Assembly: GCA_032128875.1 (NCBI GenBank)
Contig: JAVLKG010000003.1
Coordinates: 641,008-705,007, forward strand
DNA length: 64,000 bases
From: Candidatus Melainabacteria bacterium 17Bon1m
Lineage (GTDB): Bacteria > Cyanobacteriota > Vampirovibrionia > Obscuribacterales > Obscuribacteraceae
Direction of reading: 5' to 3'
Part shown: positions 27,688 through 47,277 of the stretch, piece after piece
How the letters are laid out: the number at the start of each line of letters is the position of its first letter
Position numbering within the stretch: the stretch's first letter is position 1
The notes under the pieces: model-generated
Databases searched by the model: none
Told to the model about the DNA's origin: nothing
Seen by the model: only the letters and a program-made list of their open reading frames with translations
Translations under genes and position numbers: made by a program

Positions 27688-28653
27688 TTATTGCACAACT
27701 GGGATGACTTCAGCTGAGTTTTCTCGCTCTGCGAGCAAGCTCAAGAGGTTCTTTTCAATGGTCATAGATATCTCGTCCAACGGCAGATGGCTGAGATTGT
27801 GGACGTTGAACGGGTTCTGCAGTTCTACCCCGAGTTGATCAAGTGAGAAAAGAGGGTAGGCGACGAGCATCGTCACTAAAGGGACGAGAAAAAAATTGTC
27901 CAGAGAGTGCAGAAGCGCGAATGGCAAGGTAAGTACAAACAATGCAATAAATCTGCGAATCTTTATGGAGTACGCCTGAGCTAATGGCGTCTTCAATATT
28001 CGCTCGCAGGCGCCGATATGATCTATCAGCTGCGCACGTTCTCGATCGACTTGCATGTAGGCGAAGCTGTCAATGTCTCCTTTTTCTAGCGCTTCTTTCA
28101 GAAGCAATCCTAGATTCAAGGAGATTGTGCTCGGCGGATGGCGCGTATCCAAAATTTGTGAAGCCGTCTGCGGACCTAGAAGCGCATTTAACTCTTTGGA
28201 AGAATTTTGTCCCCGCAAGACTAGTCTCGCCGAATGCGGAAACGAAGCGGCTAAGCGCACAAATTTCTCGCGCCACGTTTGGTCTTGTGGTCCGTAAGCT
28301 AGCGCAGAAATCGTGATGTTGCGAGACTGGTTGACTATGCCGCCCCAAAGCTTTCTTGCTTCCCACCAGCGGTCATATCCAGCATTTGTTCTTAATACCA
28401 ACAGCAATCCCAGTGCGGTTCCAATGAACTCGTAAGGAGTCAATTCAAGTGAAAGTCGGACGCCTAGGTATTTTTGCGTCAGTGCCGCTACCGCACAGAT
28501 GAGCGAAGCCACCACTCCGACAGTGAGCACGTTCGGCAACACGTGCGGAGTAATTGATCCTTGTATGGCAAAGGCATCAAACCAAAATGATTCCCACTTG
28601 CTGCTAGATGACGCTGTTGAGGGAAAGTCTTGGTTTTGAGATTGCTGTGACAT
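27688..28653 (-). CDS. Bestrophin-family anion channel
   Basis: LRTNAGYDRWWEARKLWG, GACERILKTP, ELQNPF..LPLD; GGAGG SD lies inside upstream CA gene. Confidence 0.93.
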   Translation of the reverse strand: MSQQSQNQDFPSTASSSSKWESFWFDAFAIQGSITPHVLPNVLTVGVVASLICAVAALTQKYLGVRLSLELTPYEFIGTALGLLLVLRTNAGYDRWWEARKLWGGIVNQSRNITISALAYGPQDQTWREKFVRLAASFPHSARLVLRGQNSSKELNALLGPQTASQILDTRHPPSTISLNLGLLLKEALEKGDIDSFAYMQVDRERAQLIDHIGACERILKTPLAQAYSIKIRRFIALFVLTLPFALLHSLDNFFLVPLVTMLVAYPLFSLDQLGVELQNPFNVHNLSHLPLDEISMTIEKNLLSLLAERENSAEVIPVVQ

Positions 28654-29281
28654 CAGAAGCCTCCAATATTTCAGCAAACTGACCAGATTTGCTGTCATAA
28701 CTAAAAACTTGTCCTGTCTCGATTTTGTATGTCCATCCGTGCAGGTTGATCTCGCCTCGAGACAATTTCACAGCCACTGCTGGGTGCGTTTTCAAATTCT
28801 CTAATTGAACCAGAACGTTTTCCTGAATGGCGACATTGAGAAGCTCTTCAGCGTTCAAACCGGCGTCAATGTAATTTTCTTCGACAATGCGTCGAGTGGC
28901 TTCTGCGTGCGACAACCACGAAACTACACTCGGAAGTTTTTTGATTGATTCAAGATTGAGTAGCCCTTTTACCGCTCCGCACAGCGAATGTCCGCATACG
29001 ATAATGTCCTTGACGCCCAGACCCGCAATAGCGAATTCAATAGTAGCGCCTTCCCCACCGTTTGCTGCACCAAAAGGCGGAATTATATTGCCGGCATTTC
29101 TGAGAATAAAAAGGTCACCAGGCTGTGTCTGAGTGATGAGATTGGGATTTATCCTTGAATCGGAACACGTAATGAATAGAGCGTCCGGACTCTGTCCTTG
29201 CGCCAATCTTTCGAAGAGCTCCTGATGACTCTCAAAAACTCTAGATTGAAAGTGATGCAGACCCGTGATGAGTTTTTGCAT
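28604..29281 (-). CDS. Beta-class carbonic anhydrase
   Basis: CSDSR and GHSLCG zinc motifs, RNAGN. Confidence 0.96.
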   Translation of the reverse strand: MQKLITGLHHFQSRVFESHQELFERLAQGQSPDALFITCSDSRINPNLITQTQPGDLFILRNAGNIIPPFGAANGGEGATIEFAIAGLGVKDIIVCGHSLCGAVKGLLNLESIKKLPSVVSWLSHAEATRRIVEENYIDAGLNAEELLNVAIQENVLVQLENLKTHPAVAVKLSRGEINLHGWTYKIETGQVFSYDSKSGQFAEILEASDVTAISKPRLSLNSVI

Positions 29282-29456: not shown

Positions 29457-29476
29457 ATATGCAAAAGTTTGCATGT
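29457..29476. promoter_or_regulatory. Putative ArsR operator upstream of CA-bestrophin
   Basis: ATATGCA-AAAGTT-TGCATGT within a 28-bp near-palindrome (to 29484) that overlaps the -10 of minus-strand TTGCGC-N18-TATATT. Confidence 0.65.
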
Positions 29477-29528
29477 TTGAATATAACATCTTTGCTGGCT
29501 GTTGCGCAAGTCTCCCCGCCCTGTAAGC

Positions 29529-31592
29529 TCAGTTAACTGATTTGTCCTTAAGGATGTACACTCCGCCTTCTTCAGCGGCAATGTATATGATTCCGTTTTT
29601 CGCCTCGATATCGGAAGCGGAAAGTGGTATCGCGCTGAGATCAACGGTGCCTACTAGTTTTGGATTTTTCGGGTTGCTGATGTCGACTGAGTTGACCTGC
29701 ATAAATCCTTGAACGTAGGCTCGGTTGCCTTCTATTTTCAATCTATCGGCCTGTTTGATTTTGATCGAGCTTACACGCTTCAATCTACCTGATGTGGTTC
29801 TGTCAAGGATGCTAAGTTCTCTGTCGCCCCAGATGCTGCCTTCCAGAACATACAGGTGTCGTGTATCAGTGTCGAGCGCAAATGCTTTTTGATCAATTTC
29901 TGTCTGTGCAATTTTTTTGAGGTGTTGGGGATCTTTGGTGTCGAAGACAAGGAGCAGCGTCTCTTTCGGTCCTGTATCCGTCACAACGTAGAGGAAGTCG
30001 TCATGAGCACTCAGAATATCCGCGCCTGTCTTGATCGGATGGAAGAAGCGCTGCGCGCCGGATTTTTTGAAGATATGTACACCGTCTTCTGCAGCAGTGA
30101 AAACATAGTTTTTATTGCAAGCTAATTCACGATTTGACTTATCTACCTTTTGCGACCATTTCTCTTTGAAGGTGCCATCTGGCTGCTTCTCCAGGAGGGT
30201 AGTCACTGTAATGCGTGAGCCTTTGGAAGGAAACCGCTCATCAGCAACGACAATGTCGGAGTCAGATTGGCACATTGCGCGCACCCCTTTGAAGTTCAAC
30301 GTTTGAACAGCGGGTGACGTCTTATCTTCTGGTTTTGAATGGAAAGACTGAACTTCAGATGGATTGGATGTCGCATATAGTGTTTCGTCCATAAGCGCCA
30401 GCATTTGCGCATCGCCGCCAAGATGGTGGCGTGACACCAAAAGTGGTGTAAATGGATCGCTTATGTCTACGATTGCGAGGTCACCGGCATTCGTCGTTGC
30501 ATACAGCTTTGTGCCTTCTACATCAAGGTCCACAATGCCCGTAATAACTGTGCTTGTGGATAATGTCTTTGGTTTTTTTCTATCGTGAATGTCAATAATC
30601 ATCAAACCTGAAGACGTGCCGATGAATGCAAATCCATTGCGAATCGTGGCGCCTGTCCCATACCAATATGCTGGAACATCAAGGCTTGATGCCAGTTGCG
30701 GCTTTTTTCCCTCGATACTAAGAATTGAAATTCCAGCATCCGGTGAATCTCCAGCTATTACGATCGTATTGCCTTCAACAGCGGCGGCTCCACGTCTAAG
30801 CCCACGTCCACCGGCTTTCCATTCGCCAAGTTTTACTGGGCTGCGTGGGTTTTTGATATCAAACAATCGCAATCCTTGATCTTCATCGATCACGCACAAG
30901 CGGTTAGCATCGATGCAAACATTCAATGCATCCAGGGTTTCCGAACTCTTTTCAGGCGTGTCCTTGAAACTAACAGTCGATGGAGAGGTCGGGTTCTTCA
31001 CATCAATGATTTCCAGCCCGTTCATTCCAGAGGCGATGTATGCGCACTCTGCACCGATAGCGACATTCTTTGGCGCAGCCATGTGTCCGTAGGCGGCAAC
31101 TTCGCGCGGTGAGTCCGGCTTGCTTACGTCGATTATTCGCAATCCGCCCCGCCCATTGCAGACGTATGCGAAATTGCGTTCTACTTTGATATTGCTGATT
31201 TGACCTAAGAGAAGGAGTGAGCCCACAGTTTCCACATGCTGCGGGTCTTGGATGTTTACTACCAGCATTGTTTCACCGGCGCCAATGTACGCGTATTTGC
31301 CTTCAACCGCGATTGCCGACAGTTTTCCGCCTTTCTGGGCGACCACGTCGATGTTCTTACTGGGCGGCAGGCGAGGGATGTCGAAGCGCTTCTGGCTAAA
31401 AATGTCGTAGCCGGTTATTAATTGTGTAAATGCAGCAAGGCGCCACAAACCGGCACTCTGCACGTATGCAGCGACCACGATGAACGCTGAAGCTGTCACC
31501 CACATCAATAGAAGGGGCGATATCCTTACGCGTCTTCCAGGCACCTTGGGCGCCGGTTGTGATACTTGCTCTTCCACAGAAGTGTCCTGCAA
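29529..31592 (-). CDS. LVIVD-repeat beta-propeller protein with N-terminal TM anchor
   Basis: Repeated 'GLRIIDVSKPDSP', 'GLEIIDVKNPTSP', 'LAIVDISDPFTP'. Confidence 0.9.
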   Translation of the reverse strand: MQDTSVEEQVSQPAPKVPGRRVRISPLLLMWVTASAFIVVAAYVQSAGLWRLAAFTQLITGYDIFSQKRFDIPRLPPSKNIDVVAQKGGKLSAIAVEGKYAYIGAGETMLVVNIQDPQHVETVGSLLLLGQISNIKVERNFAYVCNGRGGLRIIDVSKPDSPREVAAYGHMAAPKNVAIGAECAYIASGMNGLEIIDVKNPTSPSTVSFKDTPEKSSETLDALNVCIDANRLCVIDEDQGLRLFDIKNPRSPVKLGEWKAGGRGLRRGAAAVEGNTIVIAGDSPDAGISILSIEGKKPQLASSLDVPAYWYGTGATIRNGFAFIGTSSGLMIIDIHDRKKPKTLSTSTVITGIVDLDVEGTKLYATTNAGDLAIVDISDPFTPLLVSRHHLGGDAQMLALMDETLYATSNPSEVQSFHSKPEDKTSPAVQTLNFKGVRAMCQSDSDIVVADERFPSKGSRITVTTLLEKQPDGTFKEKWSQKVDKSNRELACNKNYVFTAAEDGVHIFKKSGAQRFFHPIKTGADILSAHDDFLYVVTDTGPKETLLLVFDTKDPQHLKKIAQTEIDQKAFALDTDTRHLYVLEGSIWGDRELSILDRTTSGRLKRVSSIKIKQADRLKIEGNRAYVQGFMQVNSVDISNPKNPKLVGTVDLSAIPLSASDIEAKNGIIYIAAEEGGVYILKDKSVN

Positions 31593-31670
31593 TACATCAC
31601 CGATTCAGCAGTAAGTTCTACTGAATAGATGTGATTTTTAGGCCACAGTTCCGTTTATCCGTTTATCGGG

Positions 31671-32837
31671 TTAAAGGATTGTTTTTAAATGCTTGACCAG
31701 CAAATGGTTCTCGGCTGGGCGGCCGGTTGTTACACGGAAGCAAGTCGGCAGTCCGAAAGCAGCCAGCGGGCGGATTGCGATGCCGCGCTTCAGCAGTTCT
31801 TCGTGAATGCGATTGACCTTTTCCTGGCAATTCATCTCAACGAGGATGAAATTGCCATGCGAGGGCACCCGCTGCAGTCCAAGCTTGTCAAAAGCATCTT
31901 GCAAGAAAGCCATCGCATGACGATTGTTTGCGAGTGTTTCTTCCAGGAAGTCTTCATCTTGTAGAGCTGCCAAACCAGCGGCTTGTGCCAGTGAATTGGG
32001 CTCGAAAGGAAGTCTGATGCGGTTTACGAAGTCGATCAAATATTCGTGACCGAGTCCGTAGCCAAGTCTCAAACCTGCCATAGCGTAGGCTTTTGCGAAT
32101 GTTCTCAGAGTGAGTACATTGTCCATGCGATAGCTCATCGAATCCGGATAATCCGGGTTGTCGCAAGCAAACTCGTAATAGGCTTCATCCATGATGACGA
32201 GCACATGCTCTGGAATCTTCTTGATGAAAGTGTCGAATTCCTGACGCGTAAAGATTGTGCCTGTGGGGTTATTGGGGTTGCACAGGTAAATGATCTTGGT
32301 GCGGTCGTTGACAGCATCAGCAATCGCGTCCAGGTCGAAGTGATAGTTTTTGAGTGGAACGGTGCGGAGCTTGACTCCCTGGGCTTTTACAAGCACCAGA
32401 AGTCCGATGAAAGTACCCTCGGATGTCAGCACTTCGTCATCGCCGTGCAGGAAAGCACGCACAATGTTAGCCATGATACTTTCGGAGCCGCTGCCAACCG
32501 CGAGGTTTTCGATGTTGACGCCCAGCTTGTGTCCAAGCGCTTCTCTGAGCTTGAAACTGCCTGATTCGGGATAACGGCAGATGTCGGGTAATGCAGCGGT
32601 TATGGCTTTCAATGCCGATTCCGGCGGTCCAAGTGGATTTTCATTGGAAGCCAGGTTGATAAACTTCTCAATCCCGAGCTCTTTCTTCAGCTGCTCGGGC
32701 GGTCTGCCGGGCTTGTACGAAATCAACTGTTCGATGTGTGTTGGCACGAGTTTTCTCGGTGCCAGCCTTCCACCTTGTTGCACCACTAGTCTCAGTGGGT
32801 CGGTCTTCGCTGCCAGTTGTTGAATGTATGTTGCCAT
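31671..32837 (-). CDS. hisC: Histidinol-phosphate aminotransferase
   Basis: YKPG, LASNENP, CNPNNPTG, DEAY, RTFAKAYAMAGLRLGY. Confidence 0.92.
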   Translation of the reverse strand: MATYIQQLAAKTDPLRLVVQQGGRLAPRKLVPTHIEQLISYKPGRPPEQLKKELGIEKFINLASNENPLGPPESALKAITAALPDICRYPESGSFKLREALGHKLGVNIENLAVGSGSESIMANIVRAFLHGDDEVLTSEGTFIGLLVLVKAQGVKLRTVPLKNYHFDLDAIADAVNDRTKIIYLCNPNNPTGTIFTRQEFDTFIKKIPEHVLVIMDEAYYEFACDNPDYPDSMSYRMDNVLTLRTFAKAYAMAGLRLGYGLGHEYLIDFVNRIRLPFEPNSLAQAAGLAALQDEDFLEETLANNRHAMAFLQDAFDKLGLQRVPSHGNFILVEMNCQEKVNRIHEELLKRGIAIRPLAAFGLPTCFRVTTGRPAENHLLVKHLKTIL

Positions 32838-33083
32838 GGCTTCCGTTTAGTAATCAGTTGGTAATTTCCCGCGCAAAACCAGTCGGGCGGCGTGCCCGAA
32901 ACCTCTCAATGTCACTGCGTTTGGCGCGGTCGGCATTAAGAAACTTTGACGCTAAAGTAACATCTCTTTTTCCCATGTACAAGTTAATGCAGGGTGAATT
33001 CCGTATTTATCAGATATATCTAACCTTAAGACTTCCTTGTGTATCGGGCATATCTTTAGATAAATAGCGTAAAGGGGCAATCT

Positions 33084-33503
33084 ATGGACGTTTCGGGACT
33101 GAATACGCGCAGTAAGGGCCGGTTGCCAGGTTTAATCGGCATAGAAATTGTTGAGAGCGCTAATGAAAAACTGATTAGTAAGCTTGATATCCGAGATGAG
33201 CTTTTAGCTCCTAATGGTTATCTACATGCGGCATCAGTGATCGCCCTTGCGGATACAACTTGTGGATACGGCTGTGTACTGAATTTTAAGCCTGATGTGG
33301 CGTCATTCACGACAGTCGAGCTTAAGGCCAACTTCATAGGCACAGCCCGAAAAGGCACGATTTTTTGCCATGCTGAGAGAATTCATAGCGGCAAAACGAC
33401 GGAAGTTTGGGATGCCAGGGTGAGCGACGCCGAAAGCGGCAAGTTGATCGCCCTGTTTCGTTGCACCCAAATGCTTCTCTATAGAAAGGAAGCGCAATCC
33501 TAA
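33084..33503 (+). CDS. PaaI-family hotdog thioesterase
   Basis: 'NGYLHAASVIALADT', 'TVELKANF'. Confidence 0.9.
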   Translation: MDVSGLNTRSKGRLPGLIGIEIVESANEKLISKLDIRDELLAPNGYLHAASVIALADTTCGYGCVLNFKPDVASFTTVELKANFIGTARKGTIFCHAERIHSGKTTEVWDARVSDAESGKLIALFRCTQMLLYRKEAQS

Positions 33504-33505
33504 AT

Positions 33506-33558
33506 GTAGGGGAGTCGCATGCGACTCCCTGGCAGGGCGGCGCATGCGCCGCCCCTAC
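33506..33558. repeat. GTAG-type REP doublet
   Basis: GTAGGGGAGTCGCATGCGACTCCC-TGGCA-GGGCGGCGCATGCGCCGCCCCTAC. Confidence 0.85.
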
Positions 33559-33653
33559 TTATTATGCAAACCCTACAAATTAGAGATATATGACCCTGTA
33601 AAGGGCGCCAGAGTGTTCTTTATATAGCTGTGTGATAAGATCTTGCATATTAC

Positions 33654-33727
33654 GCGGGTGTAGTTCAATGGTAGAACGGCAGCCTTCCAAGCTGCACACG
33701 CGGGTTCGATTCCCGCTACCCGCTCCA
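33654..33727 (+). tRNA. tRNA-Gly(TCC)
   Basis: Cloverleaf GCGGGTG..GCAGC-CTTCCAA-GCTGC..GGGTTCGATTCCC..TACCCGC-T-CCA. Confidence 0.97.
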
Positions 33728-33817
33728 TTTTTTTCTGCATACCGCAACATCGGCTAAGAGTCTTCGCCGGTTTTTTCTAGTACAGATATATTCGTGCTGA
33801 CATTTGAGGAGCGCGCC

Positions 33818-34810
33818 GTGGTTGATAACAAAATCTCTTTGAATGATGTTTTCGTTGCTCGCAAGAAAATTGCCGGCAAAGCAATTAACACGCCGTTTCG
33901 CAAATCGGTCTGGTTGTCTGAACTGACCGGTGCCGAAGTTTATTTGAAACTTGAGAATCTTCAGGTAACAGGATCATTCAAATATAGAGGTGCGTTGAGC
34001 GCTCTTACACGTAGCAAAGAGAACGCTCTTAGCAAGGTGTTCACAGCTTCGGCTGGCAACCATGGACTAGCAGTGGCGGAAGCCGCAGTAGAACTCGGTC
34101 GCGATGTGACAATTTGCATTCCTGTAAATGCATCGGCTATTAAACGTCAGCGATTGAAAGATTACAGCGTCGCTGTAATTGAACACGGCGACGATTGCGA
34201 AGTGACTGAGAGTTACGCGCAACGCATGGCGAAAGAGAAGAAAGCTTTTTACATCTCGCCCTACAACAATAGAGAAGTTATTGCAGGGCAAGGAACAGTT
34301 GCGCTGGAAATGTTCGAGCAAGTTCCGGAGTTGAACAAAATTGTTTGCTCTGTTGGTGGCGGCGGACTTATAAGCGGCATCGGTGTCGTTGCGCAAGCCG
34401 TCAAACCGAAAACAGAAGTTTTAGGCGTTGTCGCAGCGAATTCTGCAGCGATGACTTCTTCCATAAATCAAGGAAGAATCGTAAAGGTTATGCAAGAGCC
34501 GACCATTGCTGATGGTATCGCCGGTAATATCGAGCCTGATTCAATTACTTTTCCGATGTGCCAAGAGCTTGTTTCCGATTGGGCTGTTGTTGAAGATCAA
34601 GACATCAAAACAGCGATCTTCGAATTTCTAGATAACGAAGGCATGCTCATTGAAGGCGCTTCCGCAGCCGCAATTGCCGCGGTGTTGCGCAAGCAAGTTC
34701 AAATCAAACCGAAAGAAACGGTTGGCATTGTTGTTTGCGGCGGCAACATCTCGAAGAACGAGTGGCGCGAGATTGTTGTCGAACATCTGGTCTCCCAGAC
34801 TCGCAAGTAA
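33818..34810 (+). CDS. Threonine/serine dehydratase (PLP, no ACT domain)
   Basis: KLENLQVTGSFKYRGA, SAGNHG, VGGGGL, CGGN. Confidence 0.9.
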   Translation: MVDNKISLNDVFVARKKIAGKAINTPFRKSVWLSELTGAEVYLKLENLQVTGSFKYRGALSALTRSKENALSKVFTASAGNHGLAVAEAAVELGRDVTICIPVNASAIKRQRLKDYSVAVIEHGDDCEVTESYAQRMAKEKKAFYISPYNNREVIAGQGTVALEMFEQVPELNKIVCSVGGGGLISGIGVVAQAVKPKTEVLGVVAANSAAMTSSINQGRIVKVMQEPTIADGIAGNIEPDSITFPMCQELVSDWAVVEDQDIKTAIFEFLDNEGMLIEGASAAAIAAVLRKQVQIKPKETVGIVVCGGNISKNEWREIVVEHLVSQTRK

Positions 34811-34817
34811 TTCGAAT

Positions 34818-35387
34818 TTACTCGTACAGACCTGAAAACAATCTCAATGCATTTAGATTGTCGTACTTTTGCACACTCATTTTTGCTGGTTCGTCTTCTT
34901 TGTGATCAATAAGGACTGTTCCATCTTTTAGATCTATCAGTCCTTTCAGTACGGGCGTATAAAAATCCGTTTTGGACCGCCCTTCAGGTTTTTTCGAAAC
35001 TTCAGTTTGCCCGAACTTTACTTCTTCGCCAGGGCCTTTAAAGAACTTGGTTTTATGAATGTTCTTTTCCTTGGCAAATTCAGTTGTAAAAGCGTCCTCG
35101 AATTTTCCATCGTTATCTTTATCAATTTCGACAACCGCGAGCTTGTTGTCTCCAATGATTGTAACCCTGGCTAAGCCATCGGCCTGTCCGTCCTGGTCTC
35201 TGTGTATTTCAAGCTGCATTCGCCGCTGCTGGATGGAATTCAACGTTTCGTCTGATTTGACTTTGAATTCCGGTATCTTGTACGCGTCATCAACTGCATT
35301 GTTCAAGTAAGTCTCCGACGCTACCAGTGGTCCCATTATTTGATCGGGAATTTTGTCGACATATGGTTGGTCAGGCACTTTGTTCAC
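34818..35387 (-). CDS. Hypothetical protein
   Basis: 189 aa ORF; DxDxDG-like segments 'DQDGQAD', 'DKDNDG'. Confidence 0.55.
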   Translation of the reverse strand: MNKVPDQPYVDKIPDQIMGPLVASETYLNNAVDDAYKIPEFKVKSDETLNSIQQRRMQLEIHRDQDGQADGLARVTIIGDNKLAVVEIDKDNDGKFEDAFTTEFAKEKNIHKTKFFKGPGEEVKFGQTEVSKKPEGRSKTDFYTPVLKGLIDLKDGTVLIDHKEDEPAKMSVQKYDNLNALRLFSGLYE

Positions 35388-35574
35388 CCTTCTTAACTGA
35401 TGGTTTTACTCTAAGACGGTGCCATGACATTGCGTTGACAGAATGAAGGCGACCACCCTCATTGCGAAGCTAAGATCTTTCGTCACAACCTCTCCGGAAG
35501 CGCTTGGGCCGAGGGAACGATTCGTGTATCGAGTTAAGGTTGTCGTGGCATTCTTGAAGCTTTCAAGTGTTCAA

Positions 35575-35594
35575 ATATTCAAAGTATTGCACAT
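35575..35594 (+). promoter_or_regulatory. Putative ArsR operator upstream of ABC-HlyD-TolC
   Basis: ATATTCA-AAGTAT-TGCACAT, 47 nt before ATG. Confidence 0.7.
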
Positions 35595-35641
35595 TTGCAC
35601 AGATTGTGTTAGATTCGAAATGTCTTCTGGAGTGGTATTCG

Positions 35642-37441
35642 ATGTTTTCCAACGAGAGCGTCCGTGCTCCCTATGAGCACGTCAGTCCTATGACACGCCT
35701 CTGGGGTTTGCTTGTTGCGGACAAGCACGATCTCGTTGTGCTGCTCGTCTATACCTTAATGACGGGCATTGTCTCGCTAGCCGTTCCGCTTGCTGCCCAA
35801 GCGCTCGTAAATACAATTGCCGCCGGCATATTTCTTCAACCGCTCATCGTCCTTTCGTTGCTTGTTTTGGCAGGCCTTCTTTTCGGAAGTATTTTGCGAC
35901 TCTTGAAATTTTGCCTTGTGGAAGAATTACAGCAAAGAATATTCGCGCGCATCACGTTGCGGCTGGGCGAGCGCATTCCGGTCATAAAAGCTTCAGCTCT
36001 CAACACCGAGTACATGCCTGAGCTGATCAATCGTTTCTTTGATGTGATGAATGTTCAGAAATCCTGGGGAAAACTTCTCCTTGAAGGTCCGTCAGCCTTA
36101 CTGCAAGTGTTGATTGGCCTTGTTCTCATGGCGTTTTACAGCCCGTTTCTCCTCGCATTTGATGTCCTGATTATTCTTTTCGTTTTCTTCGCTGTAAGCG
36201 TATTGGGAATCGGAGGACTTAAATCGAGCATAAAGGAATCTGCGTTCAAGTATCGGGTGGCCGAATGGCTAGAGGACATGGGGCGTTGCCAGACCAGTCT
36301 CAAGACCAACGGGATAAGTCATTTTCTCTTCAGGCGCTCTGATGCGCTGGTGCTCAACTATCTGAGAGCACGTCGTGAACATTTCAGTGTTTTGTTTCGG
36401 CAAGCGTTGGGGACTTATTTTTTTCAGGCAGTCGCGAGCGCGGGAATTCTTGCAATTGGTGGTTGGCTGGTGATCAACAAGCAGCTTACATTGGGGCAAT
36501 TGGTGGCTGCGGAACTAGTTGTTTTAAACGTGCTATCGGCTCTGGAGAAATTGATCCGCAACTGCGATACATTCTATGATTTGCTCACCGGTCTCGACAA
36601 GGTCGGTCACCTGACGGACTTGCCTAGCGAACGCGAAGGCGGAGTCACTCTGCCCGAGAGCTCGGGCGGGCTGAGTGTAGAGTGCATGAAATTGCATTTC
36701 TCTTACGGAACAAGAGAAATACTCAGCGATCTGGAGTTGGAATTGCAAGCGGGTGAGCGAGCCAGTCTCGTTGGTGCCAGCGGGGCCGGCAAGACAACTC
36801 TTGCATCCATCATCTGTGGATTGCAGGAAGCGTTGCACGGAACCGTGGAGGTGGGCGGTTTCGACGTGCGAGATCTAGACCTGAAAGACCTGCGCAAACG
36901 GGTCGGTTTGGTTGGGGACATCAATGAAATTTTCGAAGGCACCATTGAAGAGAATGTTGGGCTGGGCAGACCGACGGTTTCCCATCAGGATATTCGCTGG
37001 GCTCTTGATGCTGCACAATTTTCTGATGATCTCGTGCATCTTCCGGATGGTATCAATACGATGCTGGTTAGTGGCGGGCGAAATTTGTCGCGTGGACAGG
37101 TTCAAAGGCTCTTGATCGCAAGAGCCGTAGCCGAACGTCCTCGGCTCTTGATACTGGATGAAGCATTCACCGGAATTGATGAAAAAACAAAATTGAAGAT
37201 CATTGATTCATTGCTCGCTCGCGAAAATGACTGGACGGTGCTCGATATTTCTCACGATGCTGAAGTCGTTATGCGCTCGGATAAAGTCTATGTGCTCGGT
37301 GGCGGCAAAATTAGTGAATGTGGGACGCCGGCAGATCTCGCCTGGCGTAACGAGAGCGAATTTTCAACTCTCTTTCCTGACCTGGCAACGCAAATTCGCA
37401 TGGTCGAGAGAAGAAAAAAAGAGCGTGTGGGGAAACTGTAA
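35642..37441 (+). CDS. Type I secretion-like ABC exporter (TMD+NBD, no C39 peptidase)
   Basis: GASGAGKTT, LSRGQ, LILDEA; GGAG SD before ATG 35642. Confidence 0.92.
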   Translation: MFSNESVRAPYEHVSPMTRLWGLLVADKHDLVVLLVYTLMTGIVSLAVPLAAQALVNTIAAGIFLQPLIVLSLLVLAGLLFGSILRLLKFCLVEELQQRIFARITLRLGERIPVIKASALNTEYMPELINRFFDVMNVQKSWGKLLLEGPSALLQVLIGLVLMAFYSPFLLAFDVLIILFVFFAVSVLGIGGLKSSIKESAFKYRVAEWLEDMGRCQTSLKTNGISHFLFRRSDALVLNYLRARREHFSVLFRQALGTYFFQAVASAGILAIGGWLVINKQLTLGQLVAAELVVLNVLSALEKLIRNCDTFYDLLTGLDKVGHLTDLPSEREGGVTLPESSGGLSVECMKLHFSYGTREILSDLELELQAGERASLVGASGAGKTTLASIICGLQEALHGTVEVGGFDVRDLDLKDLRKRVGLVGDINEIFEGTIEENVGLGRPTVSHQDIRWALDAAQFSDDLVHLPDGINTMLVSGGRNLSRGQVQRLLIARAVAERPRLLILDEAFTGIDEKTKLKIIDSLLARENDWTVLDISHDAEVVMRSDKVYVLGGGKISECGTPADLAWRNESEFSTLFPDLATQIRMVERRKKERVGKL

Positions 37442-38851
37442 ATGGATTCAACTCAAATTCGCCAGATAGAAGATCTTTCGTACAAGGCTGATTACGAATC
37501 CCTCAAAGCAGTGACATCGCGCAGAGGCTACGCAGTCATTGCCGTCATGCTTTCCATAACCCTTGTTTCGTTTGTTCTAATGCTCGTCTATGTTCCCTGG
37601 CAACAAAGCGTTGCGGGCACTGGAAAGATCATTATTCTGTCTCCAATGCACAGACCTCACAACATAGAGGCTCCTATACCTGCGCGCTTGAAGCATTGGT
37701 ATGTAAGGGATGGGCAATTCGTAAAACAGGGTGAATTAATTGCTGAACTTTCTGATCTCGATCCGAAATTTCTTGATCCGGAGCAAGGTAAACGTATCAC
37801 TTTTCAAAAGCACGCTCTTCTTGCACGTAGAGGTGCCGCTTCAAACAGGTTCCATGCGTTGGAAAAACAATTGGATAGTCTTAAGCGATCACAGAATGCC
37901 GCTGTGCCCTCGGCTCGAGAACGCTCTCATCAAGCCAAGGATCGCATCTGGGCAGCAGAGCAGGGTGTTGAGGCCGCCAAACAAAATCAGTTAACAGCCA
38001 GGCTCAATCTTGACCGCATGCGAGAGCTGCATGAGAAAGGTTTGCGATCAAAACGCGACTTGGAGTTAGCAGAACTTGAACATACTCGCGGTATCACTGA
38101 CTTAGAGCGGGCACATGCAGCTCTTGATGTGGCGCGGCGCGATCAGACAGTGGCAGTACTGGAACAGGAAAAAATTGTCGCGGATACTGATGCGACAATG
38201 AGCAGCATTGCTGCTGCAATGGCCGCGGCGCAAGAGACAATAGAGTCGACTTCAAGTGAGATTTACAAGCTCGATATTGAGTTACAAAATGTCAGTGCAA
38301 GGCACGAACAGCGCAAAGTTTTCGCGCCGTCTTCCGGGAAAATAGTACGGCTACTAACAGTAGGAGCCGGTGAGACTGTTGATGCAGGAATGGTGCTAGC
38401 AGTCATCGCTCCAGAAACACAAGATCTTGCTGCCGAACTGACTATTAGTGACAACGACGCGCCGCTCGTTGCTGTCGGCAGACCGGTGCGATTGCAATTC
38501 GCCGGCTGGCCTGCGTTGCAATTCTCCGGCTGGCCCTCAATTGCGGTTGGCACATTCGGTGGACGCATAGCTGTTATCGATGCTGTTGATGACGGACGGA
38601 ACAGTTATCGCGTTATTGTCAAACCCGATGCAGATGCGATCGCCAACGGAAAAGACGAGCCTTGGCCCGATGCCAGATTTCTCAGGCCTGGTGCTGAGGT
38701 AAGCGGCTGGATCATGCTGGACACCGTCAGTCTTGGCTTTGAGTTGTGGAGGCAATTCAACGCGTTTCCTCCAACTGTCAAACCGGAGGAACTTGGATTG
38801 CACAAAACATCTCAAGGCGATAAGGCAGAAATCAAACGCAAATCGAAGTGA
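37442..38851 (+). CDS. HlyD-family membrane fusion protein
   Basis: TM anchor, lipoyl-like halves, coiled coil, 'VRLQFAGWPALQFSGWP', 'ELWRQFNAFPP'. Confidence 0.93.
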   Translation: MDSTQIRQIEDLSYKADYESLKAVTSRRGYAVIAVMLSITLVSFVLMLVYVPWQQSVAGTGKIIILSPMHRPHNIEAPIPARLKHWYVRDGQFVKQGELIAELSDLDPKFLDPEQGKRITFQKHALLARRGAASNRFHALEKQLDSLKRSQNAAVPSARERSHQAKDRIWAAEQGVEAAKQNQLTARLNLDRMRELHEKGLRSKRDLELAELEHTRGITDLERAHAALDVARRDQTVAVLEQEKIVADTDATMSSIAAAMAAAQETIESTSSEIYKLDIELQNVSARHEQRKVFAPSSGKIVRLLTVGAGETVDAGMVLAVIAPETQDLAAELTISDNDAPLVAVGRPVRLQFAGWPALQFSGWPSIAVGTFGGRIAVIDAVDDGRNSYRVIVKPDADAIANGKDEPWPDARFLRPGAEVSGWIMLDTVSLGFELWRQFNAFPPTVKPEELGLHKTSQGDKAEIKRKSK

Positions 38852-38864
38852 GGATTACGAAGTA

Positions 38865-40346
38865 ATGCGTTTGAGTCAGAAATTATTGAACTCGATAATA
38901 TTTCCAATCTCATTTTGTGCGGTGCTAGCCAACGCTGCATTGGCGCAAGACAGTCAGCTCCAAAATGTTCCTGTGCCGAGCAATTTAAGAGGCATAGGGC
39001 TTCAAGCGCCGGAAGGTAAAAGTTTCACGCTCGAACATTTCCTGAAGCTGGTCGAGAAAAATTATCCCAAGCTGTTGGCTGCCGATGCCGAGCGGAGAAT
39101 CTTCAGCGCCAAGCGTCTGGAAAAGGCGGGTGCGTTTGATCCTGTTTTAAGCAGTATCAATGAGTATTTGAGAGTTCAAGACACATTCATACCTGGCAAA
39201 GCAAAAGACGCTATTCACAATGAATCAAGAATAGATCTTCTGACGCGGTCAGGAATAAAAATATTTACCGGTATGCGCCTGAACCCAAATGACACGAAAA
39301 CACCTTTTGTGCCGACCGGTAAAAGCGGCGAGTATTTTGCCGGTGTTTCTGTGCCGTTGCTCAGAGGATTGGGCATCAACGAGAAAATCGCTGCTGAGTC
39401 GCAAGCCAAATTAGGTGAGCCCCTGGCATTGCAATTATTCGGCGCTACGCGACTGGAAGTTCTTCTCAAAGCGGCTGCAGTTTATTGGGATTGGGCAGGA
39501 GCAAAAGCTCGCGTTGATATTGCGCGAGATCTCCTTTCGATTGCTGAAGCCAGGGTCGGTCAGATCAAAGAACGTGTAAACAGCGGTGATCTTCCTGCTC
39601 TCGATATTGCCGAATCTGAGCAAGAAATTCACAGACGGCAGGCTGCTCTCGTCAAGCAAGAGCGTGAATTTCAAAAAGCATCACTGCTACTTTCTGTTTA
39701 TCTATGGGATGAAAATGGCGTTCCTCGTAATGTACCTGGTGTTGAGGACGTACCTGCTCTAAAGCCCGAGCCTCGTAAATTAGCGGACTCCGAATGGTTG
39801 GACGGACGCAAAATGGCGTTGGCACTTCGCCCAGAATTAAAGAAAATTGCTTTGGAGCGAGATCAAGTAAAAGTCGATTTGCGTCTTGCGGAAAACATGA
39901 TCCTTCCGTCGATGGATGCATACGTCTTGCAAGGCGCAGACACGGGTCCTCAGGGGATCGGTCCGATTGTCAGGGCGGGGGTGGCTGTTTCGGCTCCATT
40001 GAGGCAGCGAACCGCAAGAGGCCAGGCACAAGCTGCCAGACTGAAACTTCAAAAGCTAAATCTGGATGAGAAAGCCGAGAAATTGCGTATTCAAGCCGAG
40101 GTGGATGACACAGTTTCAGCCATAAATACTTCATATGAGCGGTGGGCTGCCACTATGGTTGAAGTGCAGAAAGCAAAGCAGGTGGAAAAGGGTGAGCGTT
40201 TGCGCTTTGGTGCGGGTGACAGCACTTTGTTTCTCGTCAATCAAAGAGAAAGAGCTTCTGCCGAAGCGCAGCTGCGACTGGCTGAGGTACATGTTGAATA
40301 TTTACAGTCCATGGCTGCTTTTCGTGCTGTCACTTGCAAACTATGA
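38865..40346 (+). CDS. TolC-family outer-membrane channel
   Basis: Signal peptide, 'GAFDP', 'RF.AGDSTLFLVNQRE'. Confidence 0.92.
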   Translation: MRLSQKLLNSIIFPISFCAVLANAALAQDSQLQNVPVPSNLRGIGLQAPEGKSFTLEHFLKLVEKNYPKLLAADAERRIFSAKRLEKAGAFDPVLSSINEYLRVQDTFIPGKAKDAIHNESRIDLLTRSGIKIFTGMRLNPNDTKTPFVPTGKSGEYFAGVSVPLLRGLGINEKIAAESQAKLGEPLALQLFGATRLEVLLKAAAVYWDWAGAKARVDIARDLLSIAEARVGQIKERVNSGDLPALDIAESEQEIHRRQAALVKQEREFQKASLLLSVYLWDENGVPRNVPGVEDVPALKPEPRKLADSEWLDGRKMALALRPELKKIALERDQVKVDLRLAENMILPSMDAYVLQGADTGPQGIGPIVRAGVAVSAPLRQRTARGQAQAARLKLQKLNLDEKAEKLRIQAEVDDTVSAINTSYERWAATMVEVQKAKQVEKGERLRFGAGDSTLFLVNQRERASAEAQLRLAEVHVEYLQSMAAFRAVTCKL

Positions 40347-40379
40347 AAGAACTTTCTTGACTAATTGTTGTATATATAG

Positions 40380-40399
40380 ATATGCTAATGTTTGCAAAA
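40380..40399 (+). promoter_or_regulatory. Putative ArsR operator and promoter of arsR1
   Basis: ATATGCT-AATGTT-TGCAAAA overlapping -10 of TTGACT(40357)-N18-TATGCT. Confidence 0.6.
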
Positions 40400-40418
40400 G
40401 TCAGAATGAGGACGCGTC

Positions 40419-40805
40419 ATGCCCTACAGAGCAGTTGTGAGCGCGGAGTTGGCAAAGCTCTTCAATGTGCTTTCGCACCCGGTTCGCATTCGAATAATTG
40501 AAGAGTTGAAGAAAGAAGATCTCGCTGTGGGCACACTGAAAGATATTCTTGGTATTACGCACTCTGCTGTTTCTCAACAACTTGCTGTGTTGAGAAGCCA
40601 TCACCTGGTCGTCGAGATGCGTCAGGGGCGGAATGTTTTCTATCATCTGAGAAAGCCGGAACTTGCTCAGTGGATTATGCAAGGAGTTGGTTTTATCTCA
40701 CCAGACACAACGGAAGTAGAAGATTTGATGTCTGCTATTCAGAACGTCAAGACTGTTTGGGGTGATGAAACTCCTCAGCCTAAGCGAAAAAAACGCGGCG
40801 CCTGA
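40419..40805 (+). CDS. ArsR/SmtB-family repressor (no cysteine)
   Basis: LSHPVRIRII..SAVSQQLAVLR..RQGRNVFY. Confidence 0.93.
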   Translation: MPYRAVVSAELAKLFNVLSHPVRIRIIEELKKEDLAVGTLKDILGITHSAVSQQLAVLRSHHLVVEMRQGRNVFYHLRKPELAQWIMQGVGFISPDTTEVEDLMSAIQNVKTVWGDETPQPKRKKRGA

Positions 40806-41195
40806 TTATTTCTCTCTAGCCTCTTTTGAGCGAACCTTTTCTTTTTCATCCGACCAATGATTAATAGCCCTCTGGGCCGCTGACTTGAGTAAATTGGATT
40901 CTGAATCGTCAGGGACGATAAGTGGAATTCCTTCAATCAGCCATGTTGCAATTTCAGGTGATGCCAGCCGGTACAAAATGTTGCGGCCGTCTCGTCTTTC
41001 TTTTATTAGTCGCTGCGACTTAAGCAGCGCGAGATGTTGCGAGACTGCGGATTGTCTAATGCCGAGAATGTCCTGAAGCGAATTAACACATAGCTCGCCT
41101 GCCCTCAGCTCGACAATGATGCTGATTCGCACAGGATGGGACAGAGTTGAATACATCGCTGCAAGCTGTTGCGCAATCAAAGCTCTATGAGGCAT
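40806..41195 (-). CDS. ArsR/SmtB-family repressor paralog (single Cys, ELCV)
   Basis: LSHPVRISII..ELCV..SAVSQHLALLK..RDGRNILY. Confidence 0.93.
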   Translation of the reverse strand: MPHRALIAQQLAAMYSTLSHPVRISIIVELRAGELCVNSLQDILGIRQSAVSQHLALLKSQRLIKERRDGRNILYRLASPEIATWLIEGIPLIVPDDSESNLLKSAAQRAINHWSDEKEKVRSKEAREK

Positions 41196-41224
41196 AAAGG
41201 CTTCGTTCCTTGTGATATTTGCAA

Positions 41225-41244
41225 ATGTGCAAGTATATGAATAT
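41225..41244 (-). promoter_or_regulatory. Putative ArsR operator upstream of arsR2
   Basis: Minus strand ATATTCA-TATACT-TGCACAT. Confidence 0.7.
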
Positions 41245-41344
41245 CAAGACACATAAATACTAGCAAATATTCGCAGTTTGGGCAAGGCTGGTGTTCGAGC
41301 CATTTTGCGCTATTCGATTTATCTAGAAATGTCTTCAGGGCCTT

Positions 41345-41372
41345 TTGACAAAAGTCTTCGATCCGCTATACT
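41345..41372 (+). promoter_or_regulatory. Sigma70-type promoter of pseudo-murF/dab operon
   Basis: TTGACA-N16-TATACT. Confidence 0.7.
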
Positions 41373-41393
41373 TGCAATTGTTGAGAGTTTTAG

Positions 41394-41413
41394 ATATTCA
41401 AACATTTGCAAAT
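41394..41413 (+). promoter_or_regulatory. Putative ArsR operator upstream of pseudo-murF/dab operon
   Basis: ATATTCA-AACATT-TGCAAAT. Confidence 0.75.
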
Positions 41414-41427
41414 GACTGAGGTGAACC

Positions 41428-42430: not shown

Positions 42431-43927
42431 ATGATGAACACGCAGTTTCTTGTTGCAAATGAGCTGGCGGCACTTCTCGCCGCGCCCCTAGCTCTTCTTC
42501 TAAGTTGTTTGGCGACCATTACGTGGAAAACGCGAATACTCATATTTGGTCAGATTGCTGCTTTCAGCTTTGCATTTTTTGGTCTTTCATGGGGTTTGAT
42601 TAATCCATCTCTTGTGCCATCTGCGGCAATGCTCAAGCATTTGCCGTTCAATTTGGATGTTGCCTCGTGTTGCTTGCTTACTGCTATCACATTCATTGCA
42701 GCGGTTGTGCTCTCGTTTAGTGATCGATACTTGCTTGGTGACGCTCATCGGCTGAGTTTTTTGCGACTGCTTGCATTTATGTCGTCGTGCGCAGCGCTGT
42801 TGAGTGTAAGTGACAGTATATGCTTAGCATTTGTTTGTTGGAATGCACTTTCTTTGGGACTCTGGGCAATTATGCGATTGCACTCTGAGTCTAAAGAGTT
42901 CTCAAATGTTGTTCTCGGCTACCACTTGCTTAGCGACCTCGGGTTGCTCGTTGCACTAGTACTGATTGTCGGAGGCACTGAAAGCACACAATTTAGCAAT
43001 TTAACCAGCGCGTCCTTTTCTTTGACGCAGACAATCAATCAGTCGACAAGCTTGGTGGCTTGCTTGCTTCTGGTCCTCTCTTTCGGCATAAAGTCAGCGC
43101 TTTTCCCCTTTCACCGATGGTTGCTGGCTACATTGAATGCCCCCACTCCGCTGTCTGGTTTTTTGCATGCCGGCGTGGTGAATGTTTCAGCGATCATGGC
43201 CTGGCGATTAATGCCGATACTTCATGAACAAACAGAAATTCTCCTCTTCTGGGGGTTATGGTCGGCTGTTTCGGCGATTGTGGGAACTCTCGGCATGTCT
43301 GCCCAGCCGGATGTAAAACGCAAACTGGTTTACTCAACTGCAGGTCAGATGGGTTTTATGTCTCTGCAATGTGCTGTGGGCGCTCCTGGAGCGGCCCTTT
43401 TCCATTTGATTGCTCATGGACTCTTCAAATGTCAGATGTTCCTTCAATCAGGAAGTGCGGTGGCAGAAGGATTGAACAGTAGGAAATTCGCCTATGGGCT
43501 GCAGGATGGTAGTGAAGGAAAAGGTCTGAAAAATCTGCTGATTGTCGTAACCGTGGCTCTGGCCTTTGTCTGTTTCTATACGACATGCATCGACTTCGAT
43601 TGGACGTCGCTGTCAGCTGCAATAACAGCTGCGGCCATTCTGTGTGCGATTCCTGCTCTGGACCGAGTTGATATGAGGTCTCTTTGTTTATTTTTGCTGA
43701 CCACATTACTGTTCGGAGTTGCGACCGGGTTTGGGCGTCGCTTCTTCGAAGGGCTTTTACCCGCAGAATACGCGATAAATGAATGGCTTCTACCTGGTTT
43801 TTTGCTCCTCGCTCTGGCGCTTGCATTTGCCCTGCACATCGCTCGAAGAAGCAGCATTTCCAGGGCCTTATACGTGCACAGCCTGAATGGATTTTATTTG
43901 GGCGAAGTGGAATTGAGCCGTAAGTAA
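42431..43927 (+). CDS. dabB: DAB inorganic carbon transporter membrane subunit (NuoL/ND5-like)
   Basis: KSALFPFHRWL..APTPLSGFLHAG, YSTAGQMGF, HLIAHGLFK; adjacent to dabA, no other nuo genes. Confidence 0.9.
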   Translation: MMNTQFLVANELAALLAAPLALLLSCLATITWKTRILIFGQIAAFSFAFFGLSWGLINPSLVPSAAMLKHLPFNLDVASCCLLTAITFIAAVVLSFSDRYLLGDAHRLSFLRLLAFMSSCAALLSVSDSICLAFVCWNALSLGLWAIMRLHSESKEFSNVVLGYHLLSDLGLLVALVLIVGGTESTQFSNLTSASFSLTQTINQSTSLVACLLLVLSFGIKSALFPFHRWLLATLNAPTPLSGFLHAGVVNVSAIMAWRLMPILHEQTEILLFWGLWSAVSAIVGTLGMSAQPDVKRKLVYSTAGQMGFMSLQCAVGAPGAALFHLIAHGLFKCQMFLQSGSAVAEGLNSRKFAYGLQDGSEGKGLKNLLIVVTVALAFVCFYTTCIDFDWTSLSAAITAAAILCAIPALDRVDMRSLCLFLLTTLLFGVATGFGRRFFEGLLPAEYAINEWLLPGFLLLALALAFALHIARRSSISRALYVHSLNGFYLGEVELSRK

Positions 43928-46403: not shown

Positions 46404-47277
46404 GAGAGCCATCCTGGGCACCATGCACAAAAAGGCTGAAGCTTTGACTTTACCCTTTAAGGTTGGTCTGGGAATGGAGCTGCAGACCTGTGAATTCGAC
46501 ACTGACCAGTTGGGGACATTTACAGGTGAGATAGAGAGGCAGGGCAGTGCGGTCGAGACTGCTGGAAAGAAAGCTCGATTGGCAATGTGCAAGACCGAAG
46601 AACCGCGCGGGCTTGGCAGTGAAGGTAGTTTTGGACCGCATCCCCTCATTCCGTATATGGCCTTAAGTCAGGAATTTCTTGTTCTTGTCGATGATGAGTT
46701 GGAAATTCAGGTAGCAGAGAGCGTCGTGACAACCAGGACAAATTACTGTCACACAGAGGTAAATTGCGTCGATGAGACTGAAGAATTTTTGCACCGTGCA
46801 AAATTTCCTTCTCATGCGCTCATCGTAAAGCCTGTCAAAAGCCAATCATCCGTTTTTGACAATGTCAAAAGACTATTCAGCGGGCAGGTCGTGACGTCGC
46901 AGATCTATAAGGGAATTCGAGACAGGGACTCTCTGGCATGTGCAATTCGCACTTGTCGGCAGCATTCCTCTTCTGGGCGCGTTCATATCGAGACTGATAT
47001 GCGAGCGCACATGAATCCAACAAGGATGCGCGTATTAAGGTCATTAGGTATTAAGTTGGTTAGGCGTTTGCTCTCTTCTTGTCAGGCGTGTGGCTGTCCG
47101 GGTTTTGGAATTTCAGGACAAGACGGAAATCTTCCCTGTGAGGAATGCGGCTTTCCATCGGATGCCTATGCTCAAGAGTTGCATTCCTGTCCTCGCTGCC
47201 AATTTACAAAAACACTGCCGCGAAGCGACGGGCTCACTTATGTGGAGGCTCTCTTTTGTCAGCGTTGCAATCCTTGA
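46375..47277 (+). CDS. DUF6671-family protein with C-terminal CxxC zinc ribbons
   Basis: TMHKK, DTDQLGTFTGEIER, SEGSFGPHP, ETDMRAHMNPTRM, four CxxC; overlaps dabA stop. Confidence 0.85.
   Translation: MSHASQYFGKRAILGTMHKKAEALTLPFKVGLGMELQTCEFDTDQLGTFTGEIERQGSAVETAGKKARLAMCKTEEPRGLGSEGSFGPHPLIPYMALSQEFLVLVDDELEIQVAESVVTTRTNYCHTEVNCVDETEEFLHRAKFPSHALIVKPVKSQSSVFDNVKRLFSGQVVTSQIYKGIRDRDSLACAIRTCRQHSSSGRVHIETDMRAHMNPTRMRVLRSLGIKLVRRLLSSCQACGCPGFGISGQDGNLPCEECGFPSDAYAQELHSCPRCQFTKTLPRSDGLTYVEALFCQRCNP

Follow-up and report, generated by a model that had tools for sequence, protein, structure and literature searches.

Our analysis of a 64,000-nucleotide stretch of the genome of Candidatus Melainabacteria bacterium 17Bon1m (contig JAVLKG010000003.1, positions 641,008 to 705,007 of the forward strand; hereafter the window) suggests that five 20-bp palindromes located between positions 29,457 and 41,413 are, with good likelihood, operators at which ArsR/SmtB regulators encoded in the same locus repress genes for carbon uptake and for an exporter. 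The organism belongs to the Obscuribacterales (Melainabacteria), a non-photosynthetic sister group of the cyanobacteria, and its genome is available as a 93%-complete draft assembly of 7.55 Mb in 35 contigs with 50% G+C. The five sites serve five units: (i) the genes for a beta-carbonic anhydrase (CA) and a bestrophin, (ii) the ABC-HlyD-OEP exporter genes, (iii) arsR1, (iv) arsR2, and (v) the dab operon, which encodes a MurF-like protein, DabB, DabA and a DUF6671 protein. Given the presence of DabBA, CA, bestrophin and exporter in these units, the regulon is an inorganic-carbon acquisition set (DabBA, beta-CA and bestrophin) together with a tripartite ABC exporter, a content that the initial annotation of the palindromes had missed. 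The regulon as a whole is a computational prediction from sequence.

All five palindromes reported in the initial annotation are present, at the positions and on the strands listed in Table 1. Counted over both strands of the genome, the pattern ATATKCW-N6-TGCA occurs 22 times; five of these matches lie in this 12-kb span, and the remaining 17, most of them with G+C-rich spacers, resemble noise. For the window, the five observed matches compare with 0.16 expected, and none of 100 dinucleotide-preserving shuffles reached five. Because the pattern was defined after the fact, two less circular matrix tests were made. In the first, a leave-one-out test, each site ranked between 5th and 22nd among 15.1 million positions when it was left out of the matrix. 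In the genome-wide position weight matrix scan that the initial annotation had called for, an independent symmetric matrix was used whose 21 training sites came from nine other genomes, with this genome and G011, a 95%-identical relative, left out; it places the five sites at ranks 1, 2, 3, 4 and 6. By the shuffles and the matrices alike, the sites are enriched over AT-rich intergenic background, a point on which the initial annotation had let its reading stand or fall. The sole other position scoring at least 20.6 with the independent matrix lies within an open reading frame (ORF) of 533 amino acids, and six of the eight best matches outside the locus lie inside ORFs of at least 90 amino acids. 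Among these eight matches no extra regulon member was accepted for this genome; the match at C12:15020 (score 17.9) is intergenic, but tblastn found no related neighbour for it. The statement that all sites are intergenic holds for the sites overall, with a reservation for operator 2, which lies inside the longest ORF of the ABC exporter gene (from GTG 35567). Since the alignment with ABC orthologues begins only at residue 25-37, translation is likely to start at the in-frame ATG 35642 rather than at this GTG.

The consensus derived from related genomes is a perfect palindrome, ATATGCAAAT/ATTTGCATAT (ATATGCAAATATTTGCATAT), and the sites share the core AT(G/T)C-N8-G(C/A)AT in a 4-8-4 layout. 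As is characteristic of ArsR-family operators, the motif is two-fold symmetric, has half-site cores one helical turn apart, lies over promoter elements and precedes the regulator's own gene. The resemblance to ArsR-family operators had been noticed in the initial annotation, which gave ATTC-N8-GAAT as the box bound by SqrR; this box is confirmed in print and has the same geometry.

The association of the motif with these genes extends beyond this genome. In ten related genomes the same genes recur with the motif beside them. At the orthologous locus of five congeners lie 5 of the 21 ATATKCW-N6-TGCA matches in G011, 5 of 21 in G007, 5 of 16 in G010, 3 of 26 in G008 and 2 of 14 in G001, and two more G008 matches, located elsewhere in the assembly on separate contigs, mark its CA and ABC promoters. 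When an alignment of 22 ArsR proteins was used to scan 185,579 species genomes, 80 loci (973 kb) were recovered, namely the 58 closest and 22 more distant ones. Across the 80 loci, 138 of the 150 sites scoring at least 15 fall in 340-bp intervals upstream of ArsR, ABC, MurF-like, DabB or CA genes. Among the 58 closest loci, 48 of 57 have a site within 150 nt upstream of arsR1, 31 of 34 have one ahead of ABC and 28 of 31 one ahead of MurF-like/DabB. Orthologous sites precede arsR2 genes too, and this conservation supports the autoregulation that the initial annotation had proposed from the sites before both arsR genes. G011 and G008 each have a site orthologous to operator 1. Searching the family with the carbonic anhydrase recovered 30 CA loci, within which CA-bestrophin synteny is kept; 18 of the 30 have a site upstream. 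In 12 of the 30 (L134-L155) a third ArsR paralogue, ArsR3, directly heads the CA(-bestrophin) operon and has a site before it, mostly a T-type palindrome of the form ATATTCAAA-nn-TTTGAATAT; in this genome the operator precedes CA and there is no ArsR gene at that position. The motif is found directly before three ArsR paralogue groups (ArsR1, ArsR2 and ArsR3). Finally, distant members of the ArsR subfamily in Acidobacteria, Luteitalea and Myxococcales records adjoin ABC-HlyD-OEP genes and have related palindromes upstream, e.g. ATGTTCAAATGTTTGAACAT (loci L113, L114-L116, L120, L121, L126, L130 and L131). A conserved, symmetric 20-mer that is nearly confined to the locus and recurs next to orthologous ArsR genes argues for the operator function that the initial annotation had proposed.

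Combining these data with the properties of the encoded proteins, we consider it very likely that ArsR1 and ArsR2 bind the five sites. Both proteins score as members of the ArsR/SmtB family with Pfam HTH_5 (30.2 and 41.7 bits; cut-off 22) and with NCBIfam NF033788 (79.4 and 86.9 bits; cut-off 55). The AlphaFold2 model of ArsR1 (mean predicted local distance difference test score 83.2) has the alpha1-alpha5 winged helix-turn-helix fold of the family, with helices at residues 2-17, 21-32, 37-44 and 48-60, a hairpin at 64-77 and a helix at 80-93, followed by an extra C-terminal helix (alpha6; 97-114) and a basic tail. The top Foldseek matches are SmtB, CzrA and SqrR (probability 1.00), and the nearest solved relatives are SmtB, CzrA, M. 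smegmatis SmtB (8qkf) and SqrR; for PDB entry 8qkf no describing paper was found in the literature look-up. ArsR2 aligns to SqrR without gaps, and its R47, Q48 and Q53 match R60, Q61 and Q66 of SqrR, which the consulted passages of the SqrR work list, together with K84, as base contacts (10.64898/2026.05.15.721447). ArsR1 is present in all loci and ArsR2 in some, and sites are kept in loci that lack ArsR2; therefore ArsR1 alone should suffice for binding.

The half-site types vary with the ArsR group. ArsR1 proteins (...VSQQL) have ATGC-type half-sites at their own promoters, and ArsR2, ArsR3 and the outgroups (...VSQHL) have ATTC/GTTC-type half-sites (L052-L155), and many target sites are hybrids whose left half is T-type and whose right half is G-type, in a fixed orientation. 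A simple residue-to-base rule was rejected because SqrR has SQQL and yet ATTC, and because one or two evolutionary events would account for the pattern. Contig C1:486967-487347 (L041 6968-7348) encodes a further ArsR paralogue with 42% identity to ArsR2; the gene sits after a 548-aa ORF, no palindrome precedes it, and it does not belong to this regulon.

The positions of the sites relative to the promoters suggest that the ArsR proteins probably act as repressors at the five promoters. The initial annotation placed all sites next to promoter-like elements; a consensus (sigma-70-like) promoter scan bears this out at operators 3 and 5 and flags nothing at operators 1 and 2, for which extended -10 promoters were assigned by eye and from conservation. 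At the CA promoter the order TGnTAwATT-CAA-operator is kept in G011 and G008. At the exporter promoter the right half of operator 2, TTGCAC (35587-35592), sits at the -35 position, and 26 of 31 ABC promoters show, after the right half (TTGCAT), a 17-nt spacer that contains TG and then a TAnnnT hexamer; as predicted from these sequences, the ABC promoter is of the extended -10 type with an operator half-site as its -35. The -10 of the arsR1 promoter falls within the left half of operator 3, which accounts for the ATATGCTAA left half at most of the 59 listed sites that precede ArsR1 genes. In 21 of 28 dab promoters the distance from a TATACT-like -10 hexamer to the operator is exactly 21 nt, with a freely varying spacer sequence; in this genome operator 5 covers approximately +15 to +34. 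In one congener (L033 in G007, 13207-15110) the promoter, 21-nt spacer and operator directly precede the genes for DUF6671 and PAPS reductase on the other strand; this operon lacks MurF-like, DabB and DabA, and a second, more distant CA-DabB set follows arsR2.

In total, these data lead us to suggest a mechanism in which one dimer would bind the two-fold symmetric ATATGCAAA-nn-TTTGCATAT, whose AT(G/T)C half-sites would each receive one recognition helix, in successive major grooves, as for SqrR on ATTC-N8-GAAT. ArsR1 would be the universal binder and ArsR2 a lineage-specific paralogue. The bound repressor would block RNA polymerase by covering (i) the -35 of the exporter promoter, (ii) the -10 of both arsR promoters, which would result in negative autoregulation, (iii) the start region of the CA/bestrophin promoter, and (iv) the +15 to +34 region of the MurF-like/DabB/DabA/DUF6671 promoter. 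A releasing signal would then jointly induce the CO2-hydrating DAB pump, CA with the anion/bicarbonate channel, and the tripartite exporter.

Several sites have additional half-sites. The initial annotation noted that operators 2 and 4 extend identically, and both do continue as TTGCACATTTGCA. Its suggestion of an overlapping second half-site applies to part of the clade, where such an element is real and conserved, but it is not universal and at operator 1 coincides with the -10. TTG(C/A)A follows the operator in about 19 of 28 ABC-promoter sites (counted by hand) but is missing from the L074-L090 subclade; ttgcaaa-like extensions follow the orthologous arsR2 sites in L052, L053, L061 and L064. 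In part of the clade the second half-site exceeds chance. Separately, after the dab -10 TATACT (41367-41380) most genomes carry TTGCA(n)AT, which resembles a lone right half-site about 34 bp upstream of the dab operator's own right half. The two operators between arsR and dab (41225-41413 here, and L052-L104) are spaced 148-151, 160-161 or 169-171 bp apart in 14 loci, values that differ by roughly one helical turn; spacings of 123, 143 and 177 bp are outliers. The upstream operator is retained in four loci that lack arsR2. This arrangement hints at an auxiliary operator or at looping; looping is not claimed because the lineages are too few and too related.

A number of observations weigh against the operator and repressor assignment or limit its reach. 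At the threshold used, no site was found in 9 of 57 arsR1, 3 of 34 ABC, 3 of 31 MurF-like/DabB and 12 of 30 CA loci. The nine genomes that supplied the training sites of the matrix are also represented among the 80 loci to which it was applied, and the genomes are kin, so that the conservation counts overstate independence. The promoter scan is silent at operators 1 and 2, and the arsR2 promoter hexamers, read by eye, are not flagged by it either. Three RNA-labelled runs covering 27500-47400 consist of genome-identical contigs of 50-137 kb with even coverage, come from the same sample as a DNA run that may be the source of the genome, and are uninformative on transcripts and their starts: these RNA-Seq-labelled libraries contain DNA-like assemblies of this organism.

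Alternatively, the palindromes could have functions that do not involve the ArsR proteins or repression. It is improbable that the motif is bound by another transcription factor encoded elsewhere and is adjacent to ArsR genes only incidentally: AT-rich palindromes would suit many factor families, but the strong sites are confined to the locus, the motif accompanies three groups of ArsR paralogues as well as distant homologues in other phyla, and the half-site spacing equals that of a solved ArsR-family complex. A promoter element, i.e. an alternative sigma site or an UP-like element, would account for the coincidence of motif halves with the -35 (ABC) or -10 (arsR1 and arsR2) hexamers. We regard this as very unlikely given that such an element should have one position and one orientation, whereas the motif is two-fold symmetric and is found in four registers (over the -35, over the -10, at the start site and 21 nt past the -10), which argues for a repressor site. 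Even less probable is an RNA hairpin in 5' leaders that affects stability or translation. Operators 3, 4 and 5 do lie 14-29 nt before start codons, operator 5 is predicted to be transcribed, and the operator 1 region folds better than shuffled sequences (z -2.19); however, for the other four regions folding does not surpass that of shuffled sequences (z +0.07 to +1.37), and operator 2 is upstream of the predicted -10 and would not be transcribed. With only the operator 1 region outfolding its shuffles, the RNA-element explanation was rejected. A search of 27000-48000 with Rfam (E <=0.1) gave only a tRNA (33654-33724) and a sub-threshold plastid match over it, with none at the sites or in the 176-nt CA leader.

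The nature of the releasing signal is a separate question. That it reports inorganic-carbon or pH status is possible but doubtful; in its favour, the subfamily has two independent links to carbon modules in the Obscuribacteraceae, one to Dab and one through ArsR3 to CA. The operators and ArsR repressors could also be correctly assigned and the signal be unrelated to inorganic carbon, for instance an exporter substrate or envelope or chemical stress, with Dab and CA recruited to the system, and to this possibility we assign a little less than an even chance. Classic ArsR-family members are de-repressed by whatever their efflux target removes, which counts in its favour. Moreover, among the 22 distant loci the ArsR gene adjoins ABC-HlyD-OEP in 11 and Dab genes in one, and in Acidobacteria records the related palindromes lie between ArsR and divergent exporter genes; the ancestral signal may therefore concern the exporter substrate. 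The alignment of 22 subfamily members has no invariant His, Cys or Asp and no conserved Cys column. No conserved ligand-binding residue was identified in it, which also speaks against a carbon signal. Within the Obscuribacteraceae, on the other hand, Dab genes are present in 38 of the 58 closest loci and ArsR3 heads CA-bestrophin operons as described above, and two separate links to carbon modules are hard to reconcile with a single chance recruitment. Returning to the carbon signal, we raise with still more reserve the idea that this ArsR subfamily, which lacks the metal and thiol sites and has the extra C-terminal helix, forms a new class of CO2/bicarbonate-status (or pH) sensors running a dedicated inorganic-carbon regulon, in which ArsR1-3 share an operator family and may divide or co-occupy the hybrid ATTC/GCAT sites, e.g. 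by forming heterodimers or by means of extra half-sites and a second operator approximately 150-170 bp upstream.

Table 1. Operators, promoters, half-sites and genes of the locus (positions in the window)
Feature	Position	Strand	Basis and remarks
Operator 1, ATATGCAAAAGTTTGCATGT	29457..29476	-	176 nt before CA start codon; upstream of CA/bestrophin operon; independent-matrix score 26.0, rank 2 genome-wide
Operator 2, ATATTCAAAGTATTGCACAT	35575..35594	+	at ABC-HlyD-OEP exporter promoter
Operator 3, ATATGCTAATGTTTGCAAAA	40380..40399	+	19 nt before arsR1 start codon
Operator 4, ATATTCATATACTTGCACAT	41225..41244	-	29 nt before arsR2 start codon
Operator 5, ATATTCAAACATTTGCAAAT	41394..41413	+	14 nt before MurF-like start codon; rank 1 genome-wide
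Inferred extended -10 of CA promoter, TGT-TATATT	29480..29488	-	by eye; 3 nt before operator 1; the flanking TTTGAATAT of the initial annotation
Inferred extended -10 of exporter promoter, TG-T-TAGATT	35607..35615	+	by eye and conservation; unflagged by scan
arsR1 promoter, TTGACT-18-TATGCT	40357..40386	+	promoter scan, 9/12 matches; -10 inside operator 3 left half
Putative arsR2 promoter, TTGCTA-17-TATTCA	-35 41266-41261, -10 41243-41238	-	by eye
dab operon promoter, TTGACA-16-TATACT	41345..41372	+	promoter scan, 11/12 matches
Third half-site TTTGCA	35594..35599	+	sequence; 8 bp after operator 2 right half
Third half-site TTGCAAATAT	41215..41224	-	sequence; after operator 4
Bacterial bestrophin gene (anion/bicarbonate channel family)	27688..28698	-	Pfam Bestrophin_2 247.7 bits; downstream of CA
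Beta-carbonic anhydrase (CA) gene	28604..29281	-	Pfam Pro_CA 157.5 bits
ABC exporter, fused permease/ATPase, HlyB-like, without peptidase domain	35642..37441	+	Pfam ABC_tran, ABC_membrane
HlyD-type membrane fusion protein	37442..38851	+	Pfam HlyD_3, Biotin_lipoyl_2
Outer membrane efflux protein, TolC-like	38733..40346	+	Pfam OEP 98.5 bits
arsR1, 128 aa, no cysteine	40419..40805	+	Pfam HTH_5 30.2, HTH_20 35 bits; NCBIfam ArsR/SmtB subfamily 79.4
arsR2, 129 aa, paralogue of arsR1 (46-48% identity)	40806..41195	-	profile searches; convergent with arsR1
Truncated Mur-ligase-like (MurF-like) protein, 323 aa	41428..42399	+	NCBIfam murF E 1e-21, far under cut-off; first dab operon gene
DabB, proton-conducting membrane subunit	42431..43927	+	Pfam Proton_antipo_M 134.9 bits
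DabA, vectorial carbonic-anhydrase subunit	43953..46403	+	Pfam DabA PF10070 808.6 bits
DUF6671 protein, conserved after DabA	46375..47277	+	Pfam 169.9 bits; synteny

The genes of the locus are listed in Table 1. The longest bestrophin ORF overlaps the CA ORF by 95 nt, so its real start is probably further in. The best NCBIfam matches of the ABC exporter are type I secretion and bacteriocin exporters, all under cut-off. The MurF-like protein has a sub-cut-off Pfam Mur_ligase_M match of 17 bits, and in the Atlas it clusters with proteins that have Mur ligase N-terminal and middle domains; it has only these two Mur ligase domains, and 27 of the 58 closest loci contain a homologue. The DabB and DabA genes are adjacent in the order DabB-DabA, and a single copy of DabA was found in the genome. 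A gene for a PAPS-reductase-domain protein follows that for DUF6671 after DabA (46375-48175), here and in many related loci, and both may share a transcript with the pump genes. No gene for a RuBisCO large subunit turned up in the 93%-complete assembly; the organism that the DAB pump would serve is a heterotroph. The tRNA gene (33654-33724; Rfam 71.9 bits) lies between genes for a thioesterase and a PLP enzyme, and several contigs of the RNA-labelled runs break there.

What is known in this system is the type of operator and the regulator family; what is new is the regulon, the sensor-less subfamily with its extra helix, and the lineage. In the full-text literature we found no paper that joins ArsR-family regulators with DabA/DabB, carbonic anhydrase or bestrophin, with the proviso that supplementary tables might do so, and no paper on carbon uptake in Melainabacteria. 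Few bacterial transcription factors are known for CO2/bicarbonate acquisition, and none in the searchable papers is of the ArsR family. The predicted regulon is compact and conserved, with five operators and two small repressors, and unites a DAB pump, CA and a bestrophin in an uncultured heterotrophic lineage near the cyanobacteria, which offers a view of how carbon-uptake genes may be regulated in the non-photosynthetic relatives of this group. A defined operator/repressor pair would provide a handle on the signal that controls carbon uptake in heterotrophs and possibly a new sensor/operator pair for synthetic biology. In addition, two conserved genes, those for the MurF-like and DUF6671 proteins, are marked as likely parts of DAB function.

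Compared with known systems, the closest parallel in operator architecture is with the persulfide sensors SqrR, BigR and YgaV, which share with the proteins described here the ArsR-family fold and symmetric operators of 20-22 bp that have 4-nt cores 8 bp apart and overlie polymerase elements. In the passages available on SqrR, one dimer occupies a 22-bp two-fold symmetric operator with the core ATTC-N8-GAAT (10.64898/2026.05.15.721447; PMC9774250). The T-variant of our motif, ATATTCAAAnnTTTGAATAT, which is common before CA operons, contains this core exactly; among left halves with ATTC or ATGC and right halves with GCAT or GAAT, the exact match occurs only in T-variants, and the preferred core at many sites here is instead ATGC/GCAT. 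By their sequences, ArsR1 and ArsR2 nonetheless belong to ArsR/SmtB and not to SqrR/BigR: (i) they score 53.8 and 60.3 bits with the BigR equivalog NF040642 against a cut-off of 155, (ii) they lack the sensing Cys pair, ArsR1 being free of cysteine and the SqrR Cys at chain position 42 facing Val28 of ArsR2, (iii) they have the extra C-terminal helix, and (iv) their predicted targets are carbon-uptake and exporter genes rather than genes for sulfide oxidation.

By sequence and fold the closest solved structures are those of the metal sensors SmtB, CzrA and 8qkf. SmtB and CzrA are negatively autoregulated repressors that act on AT-rich inverted repeats over promoters. As judged from the alignments, ArsR1 and ArsR2 do not carry the SmtB/CzrA-type metal-ligand residues: at the residues that we take to be the SmtB ligands in alpha5 and alpha3N, QDHH of SmtB aligns to rkpe (DHH to kpe) in the subfamily profile, and ELCVGDL of SmtB aligns to ELCVNSL in ArsR2 and, in the same column, to DLAVGTL in ArsR1. 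Their predicted targets also differ from those of SmtB and CzrA in not being genes for metal efflux or sequestration.

As for regulators of carbon uptake, the passages available from the DAB papers name only LysR and Crp/Fnr regulators, describing in Halothiobacillus neapolitanus LysR-type and Crp/Fnr-type factors with high-CO2-requiring phenotypes. Like the ArsR proteins proposed here, the LysR and Crp/Fnr regulators control DAB-type or other carbon-uptake genes and switch modules as a set; unlike them, they belong to other protein families and use other operator types. The cyanobacterial carbon-uptake regulators CcmR and CmpR are of the LysR type. With respect to the regulated functions, the consulted parts of the literature describe DAB complexes as energy-coupled CO2-hydrating pumps that are also found in heterotrophs, in which DAB/MpsAB and carbonic anhydrase supply bicarbonate, and bestrophins as Cl-/HCO3- channels that are induced at low CO2 in algae. 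The locus resembles DAB2-type DabBA/MpsAB in its DabB-DabA order and in a genome in which RuBisCO was not found, and its pump activity is predicted. It differs from the DAB2 type in that the operon begins with a truncated Mur-ligase-like gene and ends with that for DUF6671, and in its pairing with a CA-bestrophin operon that carries the same operator.

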